Both the position numbers and the translations under genes were made by a program. Positions 1,935-29,765 of a stretch of 35,420 bases of DNA are shown here, one piece after another. Each line of letters opens with the position of its first letter. Position 1 is the stretch's first letter. The notes below the pieces were generated by a model. It saw nothing but the letters and a program-made list of their open reading frames with translations. It made no database searches and was not told the DNA's origin. This DNA comes from a virus: the UHGV virus genome UHGV-0075595. One strand, given 5' to 3'.

Positions 1935-4397
1935 TCAATTCCCTGTTAATTGCAAAACTTGCTCTTCCAGCTTTTTAACCCTGCGTCTCATCATCGCAGA
2001 TTCCAGAATCAGAGCCTCTTCATAACGGATACCGTAACATTCACCAGCCTCGACGGCTTCGCGTACCAGAACCTTTGTCTGTATAAGTGGGTAAACTCCT
2101 GCAGAATGCTCTTCTTCCGTCACATCCCTGTATTCTGCCGGGGTCTCATTCCACTTGTCATAACAGATAAATGCCAGTCGTGACACATCTATGCCTTCAT
2201 TCTGAAATACACTGATAACATGCTGCGCAACTGCACCAAAGTGCCATCTTGCTCCGTCTTTACCTTTCACTTCGATCCTGTCAAGGTACTGGTATGAAAC
2301 CCATTCCACTCTTTCCCATGCGTCCAGTATTTTCTCATCAATAACCTCTGGAGCAGTCTTGAAACGCGCATCGGACAGCACCGTAAACGCTGACTGGGTA
2401 AATCCCCCCGACCATGCACGACCAGCCAACCCAAGAGAATAAGTATTCGTTGTCGATGGTGTCATGGCTGAATCAGAAAACTGTATATATTCTGAATTTC
2501 CAGTAGATATTCGAATATTTCCATTTATTAGCGACATAGTGCCTTTAGTATTATCACTATTGAATAATTTCAATTGCGAACTTATACCGCCTCCCACAGC
2601 CAGAGATACATCGCCTTCAGCAAGCATTCTGAATTTATCTGCAGAAACAAGCGTCTGGTTAGCAAGGTTAAAATATTTAACCCACCATTCAAAACGCCCT
2701 GACATAGTCCCAACGTACTGACCAAGCGCAGGGACGTGAACAACATTGCTATTTGTAGTGCCGTCTATACTGGAAATACCAGTCACCGCTGATGCAGAAC
2801 TCAGAATATTATTTCTGTCACCCGGATGTTTAATTTCAACAAAGTTCCTGATACACCCTTCCTCGAAGGTAACCACGCCGGAAGAACTATACATGGGGAA
2901 TATTGACGCATAATTACTGCGTGCAGCATCTAAGAAACGAATGGTTGTAGATGTCTGCAGATCTCCTGATTCATTTTTCCCATCACACCCAGTCATTAGA
3001 ATATTACTGGCAATATTATTATTTCCCTGAACGGTGACTCCGTGCGCCTGCTTTGCGTCCGATTCAGAGTAATCAACCAGCACATTCGAAATCAGGTTAC
3101 CAGTCCCCTTGCCAACAACTACTGCGGCGTATTTTGGGTTGTTAGCCATTACACTGCTAATGATATTATTCGTTGGGGCAGTTTCCGTCTCAGTTCCATT
3201 GTAAACAACGTGCTGACACTCTTCACCAATAACATTGCTGACAATGTTATATTTTGCTGCTGTTTTAAGTTCCACTGCACCAAACTGAGGATAATTTCTG
3301 GCTATCACACCATCAATTAGCGTATTTTGCGATGAATCAAAAAGCACACAACCTGCTTTTTTATTATTTGCGAACCCTAAATACTCTCCTCTTATATCTC
3401 TAACAATGTAACCTGACGGAATACCATTATTCGGATAAGCGATCAAGCTAAATCCTGTTCCTCGCGTATTTGTAAATCTGATATTTTTAACCGATACATC
3501 ATGGCCACCTGAAAATGACACCTGGTGTCCCTGCACACTATCATCTGATTTATTTCCCATAATTGTTAGCGTACTAAGCATGCCACCATCGGGCATGTTA
3601 AAAACCAGATGATTACCATCTCTGTCATACTGTTTTATCGTTCCCCCACCTGTTCCGTACAAGCCACAACGTGAAAGAGAAACTAAAGATGTATTGAATA
3701 CCCCTTCCGGAACAAAAACACTGCTAAACGAATGTAATGATTTTGTAAAAGCATCCTTGTTATCATTTAAGATTCCATTTTGAGCTCCAAAATCCTTAAT
3801 GCTGACACCATCACGCATCTTATCCTGGAACGTTCTGTATACCGCTCCAGAACCATACTGAATAAACCAACCAAAACCACCAATAACTCCGGCGATTGCA
3901 GCATCGACATAATTACGCATTGAGCGATTATTTACAGCGTCCTGCTCAAGTGATGGATCGGCAAGGTTAGATATTCTGTTTTGCTTTGCATCGTAATATT
4001 TTGCAAGCAAAGATGGTTTCATCAATGCACGTCTGAACCACCCAAAACATCGCTGGATCAGCATCGTCAGGTAGTCAAATGCATCCTCATGAACTTCGGG
4101 GAAAAATTTTCCCTGATTGCGAAGATCAGTCTCCTGCACCACATCAAGCACACGCTCTATCGTGATTCGCCAGCCAGCAGCAAGCGGCGACGGAAGAACC
4201 ACTGCACCGCCACTATAAGTTCCCGCCCCTGTTACCGTATAACCAGCATCCAGCACTAGTTTTGTAACGTTACCGTTAAGGTCAGACACCTGAACAACCA
4301 GGTCGGATTTTTTGAAAATACGGAAGGTATACGGAAATGATGTCGTAACGCCGTTACCTGTGTATTCGTTGTGGTCAACTTCGGTTGAGACCGTCAT
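1935..4397 (-). CDS. Tailspike / tail fiber with N-terminal particle-binding domain, central right-handed beta-helix (depolymerase-like) and C-terminal intramolecular chaperone (peptidase S74-like) domain
   Basis: 820 aa; N-terminal YTGNGVTTSFPYTF motif; central repetitive N/G/S/V-rich beta-helix-like region; C-terminal LSDARFKTAPEV...WHFGAVAQHV...ICYDKW motif; GGAGA RBS. Confidence 0.85.
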   Translation of the reverse strand: MTVSTEVDHNEYTGNGVTTSFPYTFRIFKKSDLVVQVSDLNGNVTKLVLDAGYTVTGAGTYSGGAVVLPSPLAAGWRITIERVLDVVQETDLRNQGKFFPEVHEDAFDYLTMLIQRCFGWFRRALMKPSLLAKYYDAKQNRISNLADPSLEQDAVNNRSMRNYVDAAIAGVIGGFGWFIQYGSGAVYRTFQDKMRDGVSIKDFGAQNGILNDNKDAFTKSLHSFSSVFVPEGVFNTSLVSLSRCGLYGTGGGTIKQYDRDGNHLVFNMPDGGMLSTLTIMGNKSDDSVQGHQVSFSGGHDVSVKNIRFTNTRGTGFSLIAYPNNGIPSGYIVRDIRGEYLGFANNKKAGCVLFDSSQNTLIDGVIARNYPQFGAVELKTAAKYNIVSNVIGEECQHVVYNGTETETAPTNNIISSVMANNPKYAAVVVGKGTGNLISNVLVDYSESDAKQAHGVTVQGNNNIASNILMTGCDGKNESGDLQTSTTIRFLDAARSNYASIFPMYSSSGVVTFEEGCIRNFVEIKHPGDRNNILSSASAVTGISSIDGTTNSNVVHVPALGQYVGTMSGRFEWWVKYFNLANQTLVSADKFRMLAEGDVSLAVGGGISSQLKLFNSDNTKGTMSLINGNIRISTGNSEYIQFSDSAMTPSTTNTYSLGLAGRAWSGGFTQSAFTVLSDARFKTAPEVIDEKILDAWERVEWVSYQYLDRIEVKGKDGARWHFGAVAQHVISVFQNEGIDVSRLAFICYDKWNETPAEYRDVTEEEHSAGVYPLIQTKVLVREAVEAGECYGIRYEEALILESAMMRRRVKKLEEQVLQLTGN

Positions 4398-4501
4398 GTT
4401 AAATCTCCAGATAGTCGCAGCACCCGTTGCGCCGCATATCTGGTTATTCTATTACCCAAAAAACCATATATGGATAGAAAGACTGTGAATATGAATAGAT
4501 A

Positions 4502-4516
4502 TTACCTTTCAGGTAA
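4502..4516. promoter_or_regulatory. Operator-like palindrome TTACCTTTCAGGTAA (member of ATTACC-N5-GGTAAT family)
   Basis: Perfect inverted half-sites; identical 17-mer TATTACCTTTCAGGTAA also at 23570..23586; lies between divergent tailspike and SOS-gene starts. Confidence 0.55.
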
Positions 4517-4555
4517 TTTGCAAAACGTGCTGGATAGCAAACAAATTATTTGCTA

Positions 4556-4571
4556 CTGTATAAATATACAG
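4556..4571 (+). promoter_or_regulatory. LexA (SOS) box CTGTATAAATATACAG overlapping a -10-like TATAAAT
   Basis: Exact CTGT-N8-ACAG with AT-rich centre, extended TACTGTATAAATATACAGTT; 23 bp upstream of ATG at 4594. Confidence 0.6.
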
Positions 4572-4593
4572 TTATTGCATGGAGAAGATTAAG

Positions 4594-4851
4594 ATGCAGC
4601 AGTATCACTATCCACTGGAAGAGGGATTTACCGAAAGGATTCACACGCCGGGAGGCGTCAGGTCACTGGTGGAGGGATCGCACTTGATGAAATTACTCCG
4701 GGATCTCGATAAGGATGGATTTAATGTCGATGGCCCACTTGCCGAACTGACTGCACTGATTAACTACGTCACCAGCTCACAGATGTCTATGCAGGATCTG
4801 CAAACACATCTCGACTATTGTGCCGAACAATTACGAAAACAAACCAGATAA
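4594..4851 (+). CDS. Small protein (85 aa) paralogous to the C-terminal domain of the downstream AntA-domain antirepressor; putative SOS-induced immunity modulator
   Basis: GGAGAAG RBS 6 nt upstream of ATG; shares a colinear motif series with the C-terminus of ORF 5169..5825 (IH-[ST]P-[GS]GV ... LM-LL ... DG-V-G ... ELT ... [DI]LQTH--Y); LexA box in its promoter. Confidence 0.55.
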   Translation: MQQYHYPLEEGFTERIHTPGGVRSLVEGSHLMKLLRDLDKDGFNVDGPLAELTALINYVTSSQMSMQDLQTHLDYCAEQLRKQTR

Positions 4852-4854
4852 GGT

Positions 4855-4897
4855 TTGAAATTACCAAATGGAGTGCTTATATTTACCTTTGCGGTAA
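4855..4897 (+). promoter_or_regulatory. Sigma70-like promoter (TTGAAA-17-TATATT) with operator TTACCTTTGCGGTAA overlapping -10/+1
   Basis: -35 at 4855..4860, -10 at 4878..4883, palindrome 4883..4897 with extended arms ATTTACC/GGTAAAT. Confidence 0.5.
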
Positions 4898-4924
4898 ATT
4901 TACATCGCACTCCTCTTGTGCCAT

Positions 4925-5010
4925 AGTAATCGGGCACTGGCAAAATCCAGTGCCGGGATTGGTCTCCCGGATTACTAAGTGGCGCATACCACGCCAGACG
5001 TGGTTTTTTT
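4925..5010 (+). ncRNA. Candidate structured leader / small RNA upstream of the antirepressor gene (nested hairpins ending in an intrinsic terminator)
   Basis: Hairpin GCACTGG-N6-CCAGTGC (4934..4953), CCGGGA-N6-TCCCGG (4953..4970), outer pairing AGTAATCGGG/CCCGGATTACT, then terminator; track ORF here starts with TTG and has no RBS. Confidence 0.3.
4988..5010 (+). terminator. Rho-independent terminator (ACCACG-ccaga-CGTGGT followed by T7)
   Basis: 6-bp GC-rich stem, 5-nt loop, T-run; sits between promoter at 4855 and antirepressor ATG at 5169. Confidence 0.55.
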
Positions 5011-5168
5011 ATGCGTATAGCACAGTCATGCCAGAATTATGGTGGGCTGAATGGGGGTCCGAAAGGACGCCGGTACCACTTAGGCCGGTAAGACCAACTC
5101 CGTTCAGTTCACCACCATCTGATTGGTCTCAGCGGTGGTGATGTAATTCGCTAAGTGGAGACGCCATC

Positions 5169-5825
5169 ATGAACGCTCAACTCATCCCCGTATTCAACGG
5201 CACTATATCTAACGAAACAGCCCTACTTTGTAATGCCCGCGATCTGCACGCTTTTTTAGGTGTTAAAAAGGTGTTTGCAGCATGGATTACAAATCGCATA
5301 TCAGAATACGAATTCATTGAAAATCAAGACTATATTTTGCTTTCCAATTTGGGAAAGCAAACATCTGGTAGAGGCGGCCACAACCGCAAAGAGTACCACC
5401 TCACCCTTGATACAGCCAAAGAGCTGGCGATGGTCGAGCGTAACGAAAAAGGTCGCCAGGTGCGACGCTACTTCATTGAATGCGAGAAACGTTTAAGACA
5501 ACAAGAAACAAAAGTGGAGAAGGTCTTGTCAGGCTTCATGCCCGCCATTATGGAGGCGATCAAGCTGGAAGACAAAAAAGAATACAGTGCCCCACTGAAG
5601 CCCGGCTACCGCAGCCTGATTCACTCGCCGTCTGGTGTTCTCGGCCTGACGGAGAACTCACTGCTGATGAATCTGCTGAACCAGTTACAGGACGACGGGC
5701 ACGACGTATCGGGCGCGGCGGCGGAGCTGACCACCATGTTCTGCTACATCGTTGGTGTGAGCAAATGCCTGCGTGATATCCAGACGCACGCGGAGTACAT
5801 CAACGACAAGGCAGGGTTCTTCTGA
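5169..5825 (+). CDS. Antirepressor, AntA-domain N-terminus plus C-terminal domain shared with ORF 4594..4851
   Basis: 218 aa; N-terminal LIPVFNG...[10 protein letters not shown]...[22 protein letters not shown]...[33 protein letters not shown] matches AntA-type antirepressor domain as recalled; GGAG RBS. Confidence 0.65.
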
Positions 5826-5869: not shown

Positions 5870-5912
5870 TTGCAGACTGGGGGTGAATAGCGTACTATTA
5901 CCTCAAGGGTAA
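5870..5912 (+). promoter_or_regulatory. Sigma70-like promoter (TTGCAG-17-TACTAT) with operator TTACCTCAAGGGTAA overlapping -10/+1
   Basis: -35 5870..5875, -10 5893..5898, palindrome 5898..5912; same promoter-operator architecture as 4855..4897 and 29857..29899. Confidence 0.5.
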
Positions 5913-5971: not shown

Positions 5972-6604
5972 ATGAGAACAAATACAACAAGAAAAGCGAT
6001 GCCATACATTATCCCAGAAGCAGATTTCGATAGAAAACTGAACATGTCTGAGAAGAACACTAGTCACACCGAAAGCTACTTAGCGAAAGGTGTGGTTGAT
6101 TTCGTTCTTCCGGGATTCACAACACCTTATGGTTATCGCCTTGTAAAATCTTGTAATGGCGATCATTACAGAATGATTACTACCAGCGATACTCCAGAAA
6201 CGGTGTATGCGGTTAAGTTAATCTTTCGGGAAGATATCGTCGAAGCCAAAAGAACATGTACGCAGATCATGGTATGGCGTACGCCTAATGTTATTCATGA
6301 CCGTGCTGTTCATGGTTTGCCTCAGATTTTTTTTCAGTTCTTCCTAGAGCAATATGCGATCGTTGTATCTGATGAGCAACAAACAATCGATGGGAGAAGA
6401 TTCTGGGAAAGAATGATTTCTTGGGCTATAAACACCCCAGGATATAATGTATACGTTTCAGATGGCTCTGAAGAAGATAGACCTCTTAGCTTCATGACAT
6501 CATGGGATGATTTCTATAGCCAGTGGGCTGATTTCTGTTGGGGCAGTGATAAAGATGTGCATACCCACAGACTACTGGTTATAAGCAAAGATAAACTGCA
6601 TTAA
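5972..6604 (+). CDS. Hypothetical protein (210 aa), cargo gene of unknown function in the immunity-like island
   Basis: Strong GGGAGG RBS 5 nt upstream; own operator-controlled promoter and own terminator; no family recognised. Confidence 0.6.
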   Translation: MRTNTTRKAMPYIIPEADFDRKLNMSEKNTSHTESYLAKGVVDFVLPGFTTPYGYRLVKSCNGDHYRMITTSDTPETVYAVKLIFREDIVEAKRTCTQIMVWRTPNVIHDRAVHGLPQIFFQFFLEQYAIVVSDEQQTIDGRRFWERMISWAINTPGYNVYVSDGSEEDRPLSFMTSWDDFYSQWADFCWGSDKDVHTHRLLVISKDKLH

Positions 6605-7512: not shown

Positions 7513-9970
7513 CCTGTGGTCGCCACCAGTATGTCTGGTTAAACTCTTTCTTCGAACGTTGCTCCATTTTACGCAAATAGCCTGGTGAAAAATACTCCTG
7601 CATCTGGTTAAAGATCATGTGATCGAGAGCCGCCTTCAAGTACCAGAGATTCGCACCAGGCATCAAACCTTTCCCCAGCTTCACCAGATCACCACCAGTC
7701 TGCTCACTCTTCCCTTCCACAGCATTTAACGGTATGCCCTGAGCAATCTTCACTACGTCATCAACCAGACCAGCTACCGGGCCAAGCATCGACGCCAGCG
7801 CGCCGCTTCCGTACCTAGTGTGATCTGACAATAAAAAGTCACCGTAAAGGCCAAGACCACCACCTTTCAGTAGAGCACCAAGCCAAAATTTAGCAGCATC
7901 TTCTCCTGTCATCTCGCGAGGATTACGACCAGACGCAAGGTCGTTAAGTTGCTGCGACAAAGCGCCAAGAATGGTCGTACTGGCAATAAACGTCGCAATA
8001 TATGCCGCACGCCCACCAGCAGACGGCATACCCATAGCGCGTGACCAGTGACGCATAACCACCGAGATAGGGAACGATTTAAACAGGAAAACACTTCTCG
8101 TTAATTCACCTTTCCATGTTCCACGCTGAATACCAGAACCGGTTATCAGTTGCTCACGTGCTCCCGGTGTAATAACAGCCATATCAACTTCTTCAGTTAC
8201 GGCACCGAGCAGTTTACGCATTGCCTCAAATTTCACGCGTTCAGGCTCACCAAGATGTTTAACTGCTGAATCAGGGATACGCATAATGCTTTCCGGTGTC
8301 AGCATCGTATTATTGCCGTTCCCCCAGTCCTCCTGTTGCGCCAGCTTCCATACGCTCCAGTCTGTGTCAGTAATCCCTTTGCTTTTCAGGATACGAAAAT
8401 CAGAATCATCGAGGCTACGAAGGTCTGGTGTCCGTGACACTACTTCTCCCAAGCTTCCCATCATGGTTACGCCATAGGCGCGCTTGTGCGCATCTGACCA
8501 TGCTGTAAGCCCACTGGCACGCATTACCGCCGTTGCAGCCCAACGAGACACAGACGGCCCCATATTATCCATCGCCCAGCGGTTAACGCTGCCAAGTAGA
8601 GATTCCATCGCCAGACCAGCGCGGCGCGCCCGCGCAAGTTCTGTACGGTTCGTTGGGTCCATAGCTTCAAGCTGGTTGCGGAATAACTGGTTCATTGGAA
8701 GGTTGGTAACCTTCGCAGACAGATACATGGTTCCAAGATCAGAGAACGATGACAGCAACGCGGATCCGAGTCTGCTGGCAACCAGCCAGTTGCGGATATT
8801 GTCAGACCATCGCGCGATGTGCGGATTCGCTACAGGCTGTGTCTTTCCGGAAATAAAGTTGTACAGATTCTCTGTGTTGTTCGCCAGCCGCTCGACTTTA
8901 CCGGTTTTACTCGGGTTAGCTGTTGCCGTTTCTGCCTTCACCTGATCAAGAAGAGAGCGGAAAACATGATCGGGGTTTGGGCCATATGTTTCCACCAGTG
9001 CAATATCTTTACTGATACCTTCCAGGTGACCGACCATGATTTCCCATAGAGAGCGATCGCCATAAAGTTGCTGATATTGAAGATAGGAATCTGCATCTTT
9101 GAAATGTATCTGTCGTGATGCATTACCACGGTTAGCACGTGCGCCGGAAATTCGCATTCCGGTATCAGTAAGCTTATTCAACCCACCAGTAGCGATCGTG
9201 TTATAAGCCTCTCCAAGAAATGCAGACAACTCGGCATCGTTCATCAGTTGTCCATCGGCTCGGGTATAATATTTGCGATCCAGCTTACCTATAACATCGC
9301 TAACCCATTTATCTTTTGATACCGCCCCAACCTTTTCCATAGAATGATGTTGAGGGATCCCCCAGTTTTCGAGATAGCCAATGTCCCCACCAGCATCATT
9401 AAACCGGCGGCGCAGCAGCTCTGTAACTTCTCTCCACGCCTTAGCACCTTTTCTTGCTTTAGCATTGCCAGTATTTTGCCCCCGCATTTCATATACCAGG
9501 TCACGTACGCCAGCTTCATCTTCAAACAGACCAAAAAAGCGAGGATCAACTGCTTCGAATGCCTCCTGCAATTGACTCAATGCATAATCACGGGTGGCTT
9601 TTGTTCTGGATTCAACAGAGAGGAAATTCGATTTACCGTCTGCATTAAAAGCAATAGTACGGTTAAGAGCGCCAAGTTTCCCATCAGCCCCTTGATAGCT
9701 ATTGATAAATTTATCCAATCTCTGACGTGCGGCTATAGTGAGGGCCACACGACGTTTCTTTAATGCCGCTTCTCGCTGTAATTCTTCAGATGCCAATTGT
9801 GCTGCACGATATAGCCGCTCTGATTCGGAAAGTTGTCTCCACGACATCGGGTCATCACGAGCAATAGAGCGCATATTTCGATAAATGCGGTCTTCAATGT
9901 TCTGTATTTCTCGCGCCGTTAACGTGCGCTGCGCCGCCTGCTGGACCGCTTGTATACATTCCTGTCTCAT
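7496..9970 (-). CDS. Large internal virion / ejection protein (824 aa)
   Basis: Position in late operon after tail genes, analogous to T7 gp15/gp16 core proteins; no catalytic motif recognised. Confidence 0.55.
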   Translation of the reverse strand: MRQECIQAVQQAAQRTLTAREIQNIEDRIYRNMRSIARDDPMSWRQLSESERLYRAAQLASEELQREAALKKRRVALTIAARQRLDKFINSYQGADGKLGALNRTIAFNADGKSNFLSVESRTKATRDYALSQLQEAFEAVDPRFFGLFEDEAGVRDLVYEMRGQNTGNAKARKGAKAWREVTELLRRRFNDAGGDIGYLENWGIPQHHSMEKVGAVSKDKWVSDVIGKLDRKYYTRADGQLMNDAELSAFLGEAYNTIATGGLNKLTDTGMRISGARANRGNASRQIHFKDADSYLQYQQLYGDRSLWEIMVGHLEGISKDIALVETYGPNPDHVFRSLLDQVKAETATANPSKTGKVERLANNTENLYNFISGKTQPVANPHIARWSDNIRNWLVASRLGSALLSSFSDLGTMYLSAKVTNLPMNQLFRNQLEAMDPTNRTELARARRAGLAMESLLGSVNRWAMDNMGPSVSRWAATAVMRASGLTAWSDAHKRAYGVTMMGSLGEVVSRTPDLRSLDDSDFRILKSKGITDTDWSVWKLAQQEDWGNGNNTMLTPESIMRIPDSAVKHLGEPERVKFEAMRKLLGAVTEEVDMAVITPGAREQLITGSGIQRGTWKGELTRSVFLFKSFPISVVMRHWSRAMGMPSAGGRAAYIATFIASTTILGALSQQLNDLASGRNPREMTGEDAAKFWLGALLKGGGLGLYGDFLLSDHTRYGSGALASMLGPVAGLVDDVVKIAQGIPLNAVEGKSEQTGGDLVKLGKGLMPGANLWYLKAALDHMIFNQMQEYFSPGYLRKMEQRSKKEFNQTYWWRPQDVTPQ

Positions 9971-9975
9971 TTAAT

Positions 9976-11778
9976 TTAACCTCTCAAGAAACACGCCACA
10001 GCGACATCAAACAGGCTGGAATCCTGTATTGCCTGCTCACTTTCCCTGTTCGCTTCATCCAGTACTTCACGCGCGCTGCGCGATTGTGGATTACCATCAT
10101 CATCCAGCACGGTGATTATCATGTCAGGTGATTCAAGCAGCGAGTCTTCAGCTATGCGCAGATCAATATCTCCTGCCTTATCTGACATCATTTTTTGTTC
10201 TGCCTGTTGCAATATTTTATCAGGCTCAAAAGGAGCTACTTCGTCTGGCGTCCTGACCTCTGCTGTTTTATAGAATGAAACAGCCTGAGCATTAAGTTCA
10301 CTTTCTGCCTGCTGTCTCCGAGCCAGTTCTGCTCGAGCTTCAAAAAGCTGACCGCCAGGCTCGTGCGGTGCCAACGCGTTACGGGAAAATTCCAGGCGTT
10401 CTTGTGCCTGCCGGATTCGTTGATCAATATCGCGAAGTCTGGCCTGTTTATCTGATCGAGCACGAGACAAAGCTTTACCGCTACCGGTTGGCTCTTCTGC
10501 AAGAATTTGTGCACGCTGTTCAGTGAGATTTTCAATAATTCGTTGGCTATTAGCGATTTCAGACTGGTAAACCTGTCTATCTCCACGCGGCAAAAGCTGC
10601 GCGGCCTGTTCTTCAAGCAACCGATTTTCTATAGCGCGCGCCGTTACTCCATCATCTACAGATGACAGAGCCTCATTAACTGCCTGAGACAGCAGACTCT
10701 TGCGCCCAGGAATTTCACTGAAAGATGCAGACTCAACAATGCTGGCAACGTCTACAGGTCTCCCCTGGCTAACATCAGACATAGCTTTTCGCAGAGCCTG
10801 AATGTGAGAATTGCGCGAAAGCACGTTGATCGGCACGCCGGGCGCAATATCAATTTCAGCATGATGAGCGGCATTCGCCGCCAGTGCAGCATCGATATCA
10901 ACTGGTGAAAAATTTGGTGCGTTTGTAGACTCGCCGCGAGAGTTAATAAATCTGCCGACACCACCAAACGCCACCCCAAGAACAGCATCAATAGCAATTG
11001 CCTGTCGATCCAACACATCATACTGGTTAGCCATTTCGCTATAGCCACCATCACGAAGCGTTTTTGCAGTAAGCCCACGCTGTGCCATACCGAACGCAAT
11101 ATTTGTACCTGCGGCATAGGCAATATCTGGCGTTGCACGTACTGCTGTTGCTGCGGCGCGTCGTACTGAACTTTCACCCGTCCGCGCGAGCTGAGCCGCC
11201 ACACCTTCCGCCAGCGCACCACCAGCACGTAACCCGAGGCTCATAGGGATCAATGTCCCGGCCCCAGCAGTAATGCCCTGCACTAATCCCGCTTCCTGCG
11301 CTGTCCTGAAATCAACACCCTGTGCTGTCAGCCGTTCAAACTCAGAAAAACCCTGTAGCGAAGTTACCGCCGCTGCACCTCCGACAGGACCACCGAGCGT
11401 TGTACCGACAACAGCCTGCCCGCCCATATCGAACAACCCATAAAGAACCTGCCCGGCGGTTCCGGTTGTCGCGGCATCAGGCGTCAGCCGCTTAACCTGC
11501 TGCTCTGCTAGTTTTCTCTGCTCGGCAATGTATGAAACTGAAGTGTCATTGAGCGAGGTGTTTTCGTTAACAAACTGAGCAATCGGGGATACGATTTTAT
11601 CCATCCCTGCCCATAGCAACTGATCTGGCTTTGCCACCAGCCCGGAGTACAAACCAGACAATGCCGCTCCTACAGCATTGTCGAAAAAACCAACATCGCT
11701 GTTAAAGCCAGCTGGATTTGATACTGCTTCGTCAAGCTGCTGATTCTGGTTTACTGGATTAAGGCCAAAGTAACTCAT
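9976..11778 (-). CDS. Internal virion / ejection protein (600 aa) with Gly/Ala-rich membrane-interacting region and C-terminal coiled coil
   Basis: Low-complexity G/A-rich hydrophobic stretches in N-terminal half; charged helical C-terminus; start overlaps upstream stop. Confidence 0.55.
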   Translation of the reverse strand: MSYFGLNPVNQNQQLDEAVSNPAGFNSDVGFFDNAVGAALSGLYSGLVAKPDQLLWAGMDKIVSPIAQFVNENTSLNDTSVSYIAEQRKLAEQQVKRLTPDAATTGTAGQVLYGLFDMGGQAVVGTTLGGPVGGAAAVTSLQGFSEFERLTAQGVDFRTAQEAGLVQGITAGAGTLIPMSLGLRAGGALAEGVAAQLARTGESSVRRAAATAVRATPDIAYAAGTNIAFGMAQRGLTAKTLRDGGYSEMANQYDVLDRQAIAIDAVLGVAFGGVGRFINSRGESTNAPNFSPVDIDAALAANAAHHAEIDIAPGVPINVLSRNSHIQALRKAMSDVSQGRPVDVASIVESASFSEIPGRKSLLSQAVNEALSSVDDGVTARAIENRLLEEQAAQLLPRGDRQVYQSEIANSQRIIENLTEQRAQILAEEPTGSGKALSRARSDKQARLRDIDQRIRQAQERLEFSRNALAPHEPGGQLFEARAELARRQQAESELNAQAVSFYKTAEVRTPDEVAPFEPDKILQQAEQKMMSDKAGDIDLRIAEDSLLESPDMIITVLDDDGNPQSRSAREVLDEANRESEQAIQDSSLFDVAVACFLRG

Positions 11779-19552: not shown

Positions 19553-19572
19553 GTGGGTCTGTTACGACCCAC
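19553..19572 (-). other. RNA stem-loop immediately downstream of major capsid gene (GUGGGUC-N6-GACCCAC)
   Basis: 7-bp perfect stem in 51-nt gap between capsid stop (19589) and next start (19537); no U-tract. Confidence 0.4.
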
Positions 19573-23908: not shown

Positions 23909-23985
23909 GTGGCATTAGCTCAGTTGGACAGAGCAACCGCCTTCTAAGCGGTTGGTCGCAGGTTCGAATCCTGCATGCCACGCCA
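23909..23985 (+). tRNA. tRNA-Arg (anticodon UCU, reads AGA/AGG)
   Basis: Manually folded cloverleaf: acceptor GTGGCAT/ATGCCAC, D-stem GCTC/GAGC, anticodon stem ACCGC/GCGGT with loop CTTCTAA, T-arm GCAGG-TTCGAAT-CCTGC, discriminator G, encoded CCA. Confidence 0.85.
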
Positions 23986-29180: not shown

Positions 29181-29765
29181 ATGAAAAGTATCCAGGACGT
29201 CCGCAGGCAAAATCTCAACGACTTGATCGACCGTGAATTCAATGGTGTTCAGACGCGGATGGCAGAAAAACTTGGAACTCAGGCAAATCTGGTAAACCGC
29301 TGGGCTCTTGGCAAGAAGGTTATCGGCGACCAGGTTGCGCGAAAAATTGAAGCTGCCGCCAATAAACCCCGTAACTGGCTTGATATCGATCGCTCGCTTT
29401 CTCAGGAAGGTTTTCAGCCTGTCGGCCCAAGCGACATTGGTCAGCTGGCAGCTCACAACCTGGAACGCTGGATGAGTGAAAGCCGCGACCTTTCAACTCA
29501 GGGAAAACTTCACCGCGCATCCGGCGTCGCCCAGGTGACAATCAGTCGCCTGTTAAACAATGAGGTCAGCGTTTCCATTTCCACCCTGGAGAATGTTGCA
29601 TCCGCATTCGGGCGTCACGGATATGAACTACTGATTCACCCGCACGACCCTGCGACTATCAACTATGACCGCTCGCGCTACGCATTGTTACCCGAAACCG
29701 AGAAAGCAAAGATCGAAAGTTACATTGAATTTGTCATCAACCAGAACGAAAAAAACAAACAATAA
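29181..29765 (+). CDS. Repressor with tandem XRE-type HTH domains, no recognisable LexA-like S24 autocleavage domain
   Basis: 194 aa; two HTH-like segments (MAEKLGTQANLVNRWALGKK... and LHRASGVAQVTISRLLNNEV...); followed by strong terminator. Confidence 0.6.
   Translation: MKSIQDVRRQNLNDLIDREFNGVQTRMAEKLGTQANLVNRWALGKKVIGDQVARKIEAAANKPRNWLDIDRSLSQEGFQPVGPSDIGQLAAHNLERWMSESRDLSTQGKLHRASGVAQVTISRLLNNEVSVSISTLENVASAFGRHGYELLIHPHDPATINYDRSRYALLPETEKAKIESYIEFVINQNEKNKQ

Follow-up and report, generated by a model that had tools for sequence, protein, structure and literature searches.

A probable P1/P7 immI-type antisense RNA module upstream of an antirepressor gene in a phiV10/epsilon15-like prophage

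The c4 system of phage P1 is known for the processing of its RNA by RNase P, for coupling through icd, and for Rho-dependent termination and polarity. The immI regions of P1 and P7, represented in Rfam by the families C4 (RF01695) and c4-a1b1 (RF03163), carry on one strand a repressor operator with its promoter or promoters, the sites a1 and b1, a processed C4 RNA of about 77 nt (77 bases in P1, according to a title cited in PMC8546580), the sites a2 and b2, and an antirepressor gene, with two short recognition segments setting the specificity of immunity and with b2 located at the ribosome-binding site. A second system with an antirepressor as its output is the IsrK–orf45–anrP region of the Salmonella prophage Gifsy-1 (Rfam RF01394), which includes a 77-nt small RNA (sRNA) with two 5′ hairpins and a partly read-through intrinsic terminator, followed by a processed RNA of about 80 nt, STnc1160 (PMC4825925).

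Here these systems are compared with the region 4855..5168 of UHGV-0075595, a 35,420-nt viral sequence (this whole stretch is hereafter called the window, and all positions refer to it unless another locus is named) which is a phage genome of the phiV10/epsilon15-like (Uetakevirus) type. The region is flanked by an open reading frame (ORF) of 90 aa (4579..4851) and by the regulated gene ant (5169..5825, plus strand), the 218-aa product of which matches the Pfam family AntA (PF08346, 91.8 bits) and PHROG 377 (anti-repressor Ant, 2.8e-66), in agreement with an earlier note, made from the sequence alone, where the gene was called an antirepressor gene. It is very probable, in our opinion, that the region represents a P1/P7 immI-type antisense RNA module placed before ant in a phiV10/epsilon15-like prophage and working by the mechanism proposed below.

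IsrK, C4 and the sites complementary to C4

The region 4400..5400 was scanned with the Rfam covariance models at their curated gathering scores (50 bits for isrK, 45 for C4 and 46.7 for c4-a1b1), and only these three models gave meaningful matches there. An IsrK-type sRNA of 77 nt is located on the plus strand at 4934..5010 (RF01394, 67.7 bits, full-length match to positions 1–77 of 77) and is followed on the same strand by a C4 antisense RNA gene at 5035..5119 (RF01695, 61.2 bits, full-length match to positions 1–87 of 87). The element belongs to both families, the only features of the described systems that it lacks being icd, the orf45 coupling and a c4-a1b1 score above the threshold. The latter model matches at 4921..4973 with 39.9 bits, over the same hairpins as those lying under the isrK match, and the c4-a1b1 element is considered present but diverged from RF03163.

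Two segments of C4 are repeated as exact complements on both sides of it, all on the plus strand. The segment b′, CCACUUAG (5076..5083), forms the loop of the second inner C4 hairpin, and a′, AGACCAA (5091..5097), is a single-stranded stretch on the 3′ side of this hairpin. Upstream, the loop of the second IsrK hairpin contains the site a1, UUGGUCU (4959..4965), a 7-mer complementary to a′, and the single-stranded stretch between this hairpin and the terminator contains the site b1, CUAAGUGG (4975..4982), an 8-mer complementary to b′. Downstream, the same two sequences are found in the ant mRNA leader as a2 (5123..5129) and b2 (5151–5158), the latter overlapping the ant Shine-Dalgarno sequence GGAG (5157–5160), which sits 8 nt upstream of the ant ATG. 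The chance of all four exact matches was roughly estimated by us as less than 1e-7, allowing any pair of C4 k-mers. With a1 and b1 inside IsrK, upstream of C4, and a2 and b2 downstream of C4 and running into the ant Shine-Dalgarno, the order and polarity of the sites are compatible with a single C4 molecule pairing with both sites of one target.

The same-strand order of elements (here with a putative repressor operator), the two short segments and the location of b2 at a ribosome-binding site are thus shared with P1 and P7, and a P1-like phage (locus L009) has the same tandem of isrK-like and C4 matches with the same terminator and the same helix clamping it (see below). Unlike P1 immI and L009, the window has no icd: the ATG of ant at 5169 directly follows b2, with no ORF between C4 and ant, so that b2 lies on the Shine-Dalgarno of ant itself and not, as in P1, on that of an upstream coupled ORF. 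The Ant protein of the window is a single 218-aa protein of the AntA family instead of the Ant1/Ant2 pair, the a/b sequences (UUGGUCU and CUAAGUGG) are different, and the host element is a 39-kb integrating prophage of the podovirus type, whereas P1 is a plasmid prophage.

According to the minimum free energy (MFE) fold, C4 consists of a long closing stem around two inner hairpins. By analogy with the 77-base P1 RNA, the mature C4 is predicted to span 5041..5117, which is also 77 nt; G5041 opens the stem and A5114-C5115-C5116-A5117 follows it like the 3′ end of a tRNA. A promoter scan of 5011..5034 revealed no separate C4 promoter, and in Gifsy-1 the ~80-nt STnc1160 is processed from a read-through transcript and is lost upon deletion of the isrK promoter (PMC4825925), so C4 is taken to arise by read-through of the IsrK terminator. 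The earlier note had missed the C4 gene, taking its 3′ strand for one arm of a small hairpin and no more, and had not seen that its loops are complementary to sites on both sides.

The features listed there, namely a promoter with its operator, nested hairpins closed by an outer pairing, an intrinsic terminator and the small hairpin before ant, were all found at the same positions or within 1–2 nt of them. The folding that it had proposed as a check gave −117.1 kcal/mol for 4890..5180 against −90.2 ± 5.1 for shuffled sequences (z = −5.3), and this MFE structure contains both IsrK hairpins (4934–4953 and 4954–4969, each also seen in the Rfam alignment), the outer helix 4925–31/4970–76, the terminator and the downstream hairpin. 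The terminator, a stem at 4988–5004 with a T run to 5010, was found independently by a terminator scan, in the MFE fold and in the Rfam isrK alignment. As is characteristic of isrK, the RNA has a promoter of its own, which places the 5′ end at hairpin 1, and it ends in a Rho-independent terminator. The outer helix starts 5′ of 4934 and would therefore form only in transcripts from upstream promoters. The downstream hairpin is an exact 8-bp pairing of UCACCACC with GGUGGUGA (5109–16/5134–41), the first of which is at the same time the 3′ half of the C4 stem, and a2 lies in its loop; as the hairpin competes with the C4 closing stem, it is attributed to the unprocessed read-through transcript.

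Conservation and co-variation across related loci

Seventeen related loci were compared, including four other Uetakeviruses, the unclassified but closely similar EC.W1-9, a Klebsiella phage, APSE-2, VT2-Sakai and other Stx phages, phiP27, a Gifsy-like Salmonella phage and a P1-like Punavirus. In all 17 an isrK match is followed 18–26 nt later by a C4 match, the isrK match being just under the gathering score in the P1-like and SW-37 loci, and Gifsy-1 has the same tandem isrK–C4 arrangement. Base pairs were counted on a 17-sequence alignment (A1) using the structure derived from the window sequence, with a control in which one partner of each helix was slid by 1–3 columns. The a1–a′ helix is 98.3% paired and the a′–a2 helix 96.6% paired, each with five of seven pairs changed on both sides, and pairing over the whole structure falls to 36–46% in the control. 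The 17-bp outer stem of C4 is 100% paired with four pairs changed on both sides, and its second inner hairpin is 92% paired. For hairpin 1 of IsrK the figure is 94%, with six of seven pairs covarying, the outer helix is 74.8% paired with double-sided changes in five of seven pairs (only 24–46% paired when slid), and the hairpin 5109..5141 is 97.1% paired with two pairs changed on both sides.

The b sites contain indels, for which reason duplex energies were used for them. On average, the b′–b1 duplex has −12.1 kcal/mol for cognate partners versus −5.1 for non-cognate ones, b′–b2 −13.0 versus −6.6, a′–a1 −10.0 versus −3.7 and a′–a2 −9.8 versus −3.7, so that the cognate advantage is about 6–7 kcal/mol in all four interactions. 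Sixteen distinct a/b combinations occur among the 17 loci; the C4 segments of phiV10, for instance, are ACGCCAA and CCUUUUAG, non-cognate to the window. A pattern scan of viral contigs, in which exact complements of at least 6 nt were required on both sides, gave 102 unique further instances. Two C4 segments are complementary both upstream and downstream in 54 of these and one segment in 36, compared with 7 and 142, respectively, of 501 non-cognate controls. These results indicate that the a and b sites are under selection to match C4. The 54 instances with both sites exact have 39 distinct a/b combinations, and the b′ of the window, CCACUUAG, was also met beside a different a′. Judging by these sequences, the a/b address is modular and diversifying, as would be expected of a determinant of hetero-immunity. 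In the same scan, contig IMGVR_UViG_2671181028_000005 was seen to have three C4-pattern matches 656 nt apart at 9712..11104, which suggests either a tandem triplication or an assembly artefact.

Two helices at the terminator were assessed in another way. By alignment columns the IsrK terminator stem is only 55% paired, because the register of the helix shifts between subfamilies, and it was re-assessed by folding each sequence separately. The column count was likewise replaced by per-sequence folding and a cognate/non-cognate duplex comparison for a helix of 5–8 bp which clamps the terminator, pairing 4982–87 (GCGCAU) with 5011–16 (AUGCGU) in the window. It is 64% paired by columns, is present with differing sequences in the MFE folds of all 17 loci, and shows a modest contrast of −7.9 for cognate versus −5.0 for non-cognate duplexes, so it may be called moderately supported. 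This clamp, which is absent from the Rfam isrK model, can form only after read-through and is possibly a processing site.

These data bear on two other explanations of the region. The earlier note had regarded a cis-acting attenuator as plausible. In a purely cis-acting device, read-through and the exposure of the ribosome-binding site would be set by the terminator and by a choice of partner for UCACCACC, either the upstream GGUGGG strand or the downstream GGUGGUGA, with no RNA acting in trans. There is indeed an intrinsic terminator, and the helices that exclude each other are both conserved, but two short co-varying sites duplicated around a tRNA-like stable RNA would be needless in such a device, and the members of the C4 family act in trans in P1 and P7 (PMC8546580; PMC12197685). 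A purely cis attenuator is thus highly improbable, and the system would not work primarily in this way but in trans, through two short complementary sites.

That the region encodes a protein, either ORF 4818..5141 or ORF 5028..5141, is more improbable still, to the point of being hardly credible. An open frame does exist, and some records annotate comparable frames as coding sequences (CDSs), that of ZX5 as an "ash family protein" and that of VT2-Sakai as orf34. Nevertheless, ORF 4818..5141 starts, as the earlier note had pointed out, with TTG and lacks a Shine-Dalgarno sequence, and it overlaps the two RNA genes. The relatives do not share the frame, and what is kept is the RNA structure, in which compensatory changes occur. 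Neither the two ORFs nor the CDSs that the ZX5 and VT2-Sakai records place over C4 gave a match in Pfam or NCBIfam, and the coding assignment was rejected. The idea that the "ash family" label stands for a Pfam family built on translated C4 was also dropped, being unsupported by the scans.

Promoters, operator and the proposed switch

Two promoters precede the RNA genes on the plus strand. The upstream one, TTGAAA-17-TATATT at 4855..4883, is sigma-70-like with 10 of 12 consensus matches and a predicted start at about 4890; together with the operator described below it makes up the operator-controlled promoter that the earlier note had placed at 4855..4897. Its position is kept in five relatives (phiV10, Tyrion, the Klebsiella phage, ZX5 and EC.W1-9), even in one relative with unrelated upstream genes. 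The IsrK promoter, TTTACA-17-CATAGT at 4899..4927, was found by the promoter scan and has a predicted start at 4934, which coincides with the known 5′ end of IsrK, i.e., the start of the Rfam model. The distance is constant over the 17 loci, each having its best −10 hexamer end exactly 6 nt 5′ of position 1 of the isrK match. An RNA of roughly 120 nt ending near 5010, as had been suggested previously, would fit only the product of the upstream promoter, while the conserved promoter gives a predicted RNA of 77 nt.

The operator is the inverted repeat TTACC-N5-GGTAA at 4883..4897, which has no strand. It covers the upstream promoter at its −10 hexamer and start site, and on the other side it adjoins the −35 hexamer of the IsrK promoter. 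Nine exact copies are present in the window (4502, 4883, 5898, 23572, 26718, 26780, 29111, 29823 and 29885) versus 0.025 expected from shuffled sequences, and there are three further copies with one mismatch; all the copies are apparently intergenic or in promoter regions. In the relatives the half-sites are kept and the 5-nt spacer varies. The pairs 26718/26780 and 29823/29885, each spaced by 62 bp, resemble tandem operators. Three copies flank ORF 29181..29765 (plus strand), a candidate prophage repressor with two helix-turn-helix domains and no S24 peptidase domain, for which the operator 4883..4897 is presumed to be a binding site. These features fit induction by antirepressors and not by RecA-mediated cleavage. 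A study of phage ZX5, in which the repressor ORF21 was overexpressed, reports that phiV10 and phiv142-3 have this protein with an identical sequence (PMC9782041), and ORF 29181..29765 is taken here as a candidate for it. In a lysogen, the repressor would shut the upstream promoter while the IsrK promoter stays active, which is consistent with the high and constitutive levels of IsrK and STnc1160 reported in Gifsy-1 lysogens (PMC7067206). As the centre of the operator is near −44 relative to the start at 4934, one may also speculate that the bound repressor could activate the IsrK promoter.

The proposed switch would work as follows. Transcription would start at about 4934 from the conserved promoter and, when the prophage repressor is absent, also at about 4890. 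Most transcripts would end at 5010, giving the 77-nt IsrK-type RNA, and those reading through would carry C4 and then the ant leader, with C4 presumably excised by RNase P as in P1. The segments b′ and a′ of C4 would pair with b2 and a2 of the ant leader, and b′–b2, supported by a′–a2, would occlude the ant Shine-Dalgarno, which would prevent the translation of Ant and keep the lysogen in the repressed state; superinfecting phages that share its a/b specificity would be blocked likewise. The sites a1 and b1 of IsrK would compete for C4 as a decoy and set the threshold for the escape of Ant. Since terminated IsrK carries both sites, it represents free copies of the C4 target, which favours the decoy role, and IsrK most likely acts as a C4 competitor. 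The wider proposal is that IsrK belongs to the c4 system as its a1/b1 arm and is a dedicated anti-antisense decoy of C4, not an independent sRNA of the Hfq type, that IsrK, C4 and the ant leader form a three-RNA switch with a re-programmable (a, b) address, and that orf45 of Gifsy-1 is the C4 gene; this proposal we regard as evenly poised between right and wrong.

The published work on Gifsy-1 bears directly on this proposal, as the two systems share the 77-nt sRNA with its two hairpins and terminator, the processed downstream RNA (STnc1160, which is C4), the antirepressor output and the same six sites. The decoy role is supported by the finding that in Gifsy-1 IsrK supplied in trans raises the translation of anrP 139-fold (about 140-fold in the text), and the mutants G28A and G31A lose this activation (PMC4825925). 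When mapped onto the present scheme, G28 and G31 fall in a1 (nt 26–32), C159 and C162 in a′ (nt 158–164), G114 and C175 pair with each other in the closing stem of C4, and A107 belongs to the AUGG which is found without variation where C4 begins on its 5′ side. This mapping suggests that IsrK is a C4 decoy. On the decoy reading, the published helix b-I would be a1–a′ and helix d-II the C4 stem. The Gifsy-1 locus (L019, 944..1190) also possesses both a2 (nt 192–198) and b2 (nt 222–228, adjoining the anrP Shine-Dalgarno), sites apparently not discussed in PMC4825925, since term searches of its text brought up neither them nor any mention of phage P1.

The authors of that work explained the system differently. 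In their model the long transcript adopts an inactive fold in which the middle of IsrK is paired in cis with the 3′ part of orf45, the short IsrK displaces this helix in trans, and translation of the upstream ORF is coupled to that of the antirepressor, with no C4-type repressor at the ribosome-binding site. Genetic experiments and structure probing carried out directly on Gifsy-1 speak for the model (PMC4825925), as do the match of the window to the same Rfam family, isrK, and the conservation of the a1–a′ pairing that the model needs. However, the frame equivalent to orf45, beginning at the conserved AUGG start, has only three codons in the window (MVG-stop; 3 to more than 48 codons over the 17 loci), and so coupling through an upstream ORF cannot operate here and the published activation via orf45 has no counterpart; ORF 5028..5141 has no Shine-Dalgarno and ends 27 nt before the ant ATG. 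The co-variation of a2 and b2 near the antirepressor Shine-Dalgarno with a′ and b′ is also left unexplained. Finally, repression was not regained in either double mutant, G28A+C162U giving 224 units and G31A+C159U 327, versus 4 (PMC4825925). In our interpretation a2 was untouched in both, and this outcome is exactly what the three-site model predicts. For the window, the published Gifsy-1 model therefore seems improbable.

A P4-like autoregulation deserves somewhat more attention but is still unlikely. The P4 CI RNA, likened to C4 here by description, is a small RNA processed from the leader of its own operon which pairs with duplicated sites on both sides (seqA and seqC); unlike the antirepressor translational block proposed here, the output in P4 is the premature termination of replication genes. 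By this analogy, C4 bound to nascent a1/b1 would promote termination at 5010 and IsrK would be a by-product, which is compatible with translational repression at a2/b2. In the window b1 ends right at the base of the terminator region, and, as read from the sequence, its GUGG (4979–82) can pair with CCAC (4989–92) of the 5′ arm of the terminator, so that C4 binding could favour the terminator. The analogy was raised by the IsrK authors themselves, and IsrK in trans increased the long Gifsy-1 transcript about 8-fold (PMC4825925). Yet this anti-terminator pairing is short and by eye was not seen to be conserved in the other loci, constitutive STnc1160 left the IsrK-mediated growth arrest in Gifsy-1 unreduced, and the translational effect there (about 140-fold) greatly exceeds the 8-fold transcriptional one (PMC4825925).

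Several points weigh against the switch proposed above, with C4 as the translational repressor and IsrK as its decoy. The derivation of the structure from the window sequence inflates the percentages of paired positions given above, which is not the case for the double-sided changes, and the c4-a1b1 score is under its Rfam threshold. In Gifsy-1, mutations of a1 in cis raised the basal translation of anrP (PMC4825925, Table 1), which is opposite to the prediction for a pure decoy and implies that a1/b1 may also aid the folding or maturation of C4 or act on termination. Furthermore, an efficient decoy combined with an efficient terminator would mean that IsrK always outnumbers C4. The decoy role is accordingly not established, and the RNA ends, the processing and the translational effect are ones that we infer for this phage.

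Neighbouring genes, annotation and significance

The tail-fibre gene of the window (1935..4397, from the ORF list and a family scan) is located on the strand opposite to ant. A near-consensus LexA box, TACTGTATAAATATACAGTT, at 4554..4573 precedes the 90-aa ORF (4579..4851, plus strand), which belongs to PHROG 450 with no function assigned in PHROG. The box is kept in phiV10, Tyrion and ZX5, and the copy in the Klebsiella phage is degenerate and lacks the CTGT half. The 90-aa protein shares 42% identity with the C-terminal 83 aa of Ant encoded downstream and is probably a small SOS-induced antirepressor, in which case the phage would have two paralogous antirepressors, one controlled by LexA and the other by RNA. 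As to the latter, overexpression of the ZX5 antirepressor encoded at the corresponding position, a divergent protein by the comparison made in that paper, results in less lysogeny (PMC9782041). Another match to the LexA-box core (CTGT-N8-ACAG) is found at 19559. Copies of the operator lie upstream of the LexA-box gene (one) and of a 210-aa ORF located 3′ of ant (5972..6604, plus strand; operator copy at 5898..5912); the latter ORF, a member of PHROG 1349 (3e-113) with no assigned function, may be an accessory gene controlled by the repressor. The phage also carries a tRNA-Arg gene (anticodon TCT) at 23909..23985 on the plus strand.

With its antirepressor gene next to a tail-fibre gene and presumably silenced in the lysogen by a secondary immunity including a small RNA, the locus resembles immI of P22 (Pant, arc, ant, mnt and sar), where the neighbour is the tailspike gene, and the earlier note had referred to the small antisense RNAs that control P22-type antirepressors. 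There is indeed a small terminated RNA upstream of ant and downstream of a presumably repressor-controlled promoter, and RNA control of the antirepressor would be the role of the region, but it is of the P1 c4 type and not of the P22 sar type. The sar RNA of P22 is made from the opposite strand, with full complementarity to its target, and the Arc and Mnt proteins control the promoter there, whereas neither arc/mnt-type proteins in the ORF list nor an opposite-strand RNA match in the Rfam scan of 4400..5400 was found at the window locus, where the only ORF upstream of the RNA region is the 90-aa paralogue of the Ant C-terminus. A sar-type antisense RNA was rejected, as the minus strand of the scanned region gave no Rfam match at E values up to 10. 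The surroundings differ from Gifsy-1 too: the window locus is situated beside the tail-fibre gene and the probably SOS-controlled paralogue and has a presumed repressor operator preceding the promoter, while the Gifsy-1 locus is located downstream of Q.

The stretch 4850..5175 is 99.7% identical to phage phiv142-3 and is present at 100% in seven complete E. coli chromosomes among the matches listed. No IsrK or C4 RNA is annotated in the phiv142-3, phiV10 and RefSeq E. coli records inspected, no description of this module was found in the Uetakevirus literature searched, and the link between IsrK and c4 is apparently absent from the 2016 IsrK paper and from a 2025 review of phage sRNAs. The small CDSs annotated over the C4 gene in ZX5 (locus L010, 1399..1512, "ash family protein") and VT2-Sakai (locus L006, 1263..1436, "hypothetical protein orf34") are likely to be a mis-annotated RNA gene.

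The module would explain how the antirepressor encoded beside the tail-fibre gene is silenced in this prophage, and related phages with a different a/b address are predicted to be hetero-immune. As the element was found in 467 of 5426 complete E. coli genomes, the annotation could be corrected widely. The comparison links the literature on P1 c4 with that on Salmonella IsrK, which have so far been separate, and the three-site model offers a simple, testable account of the published Gifsy-1 system, which was explained differently before.

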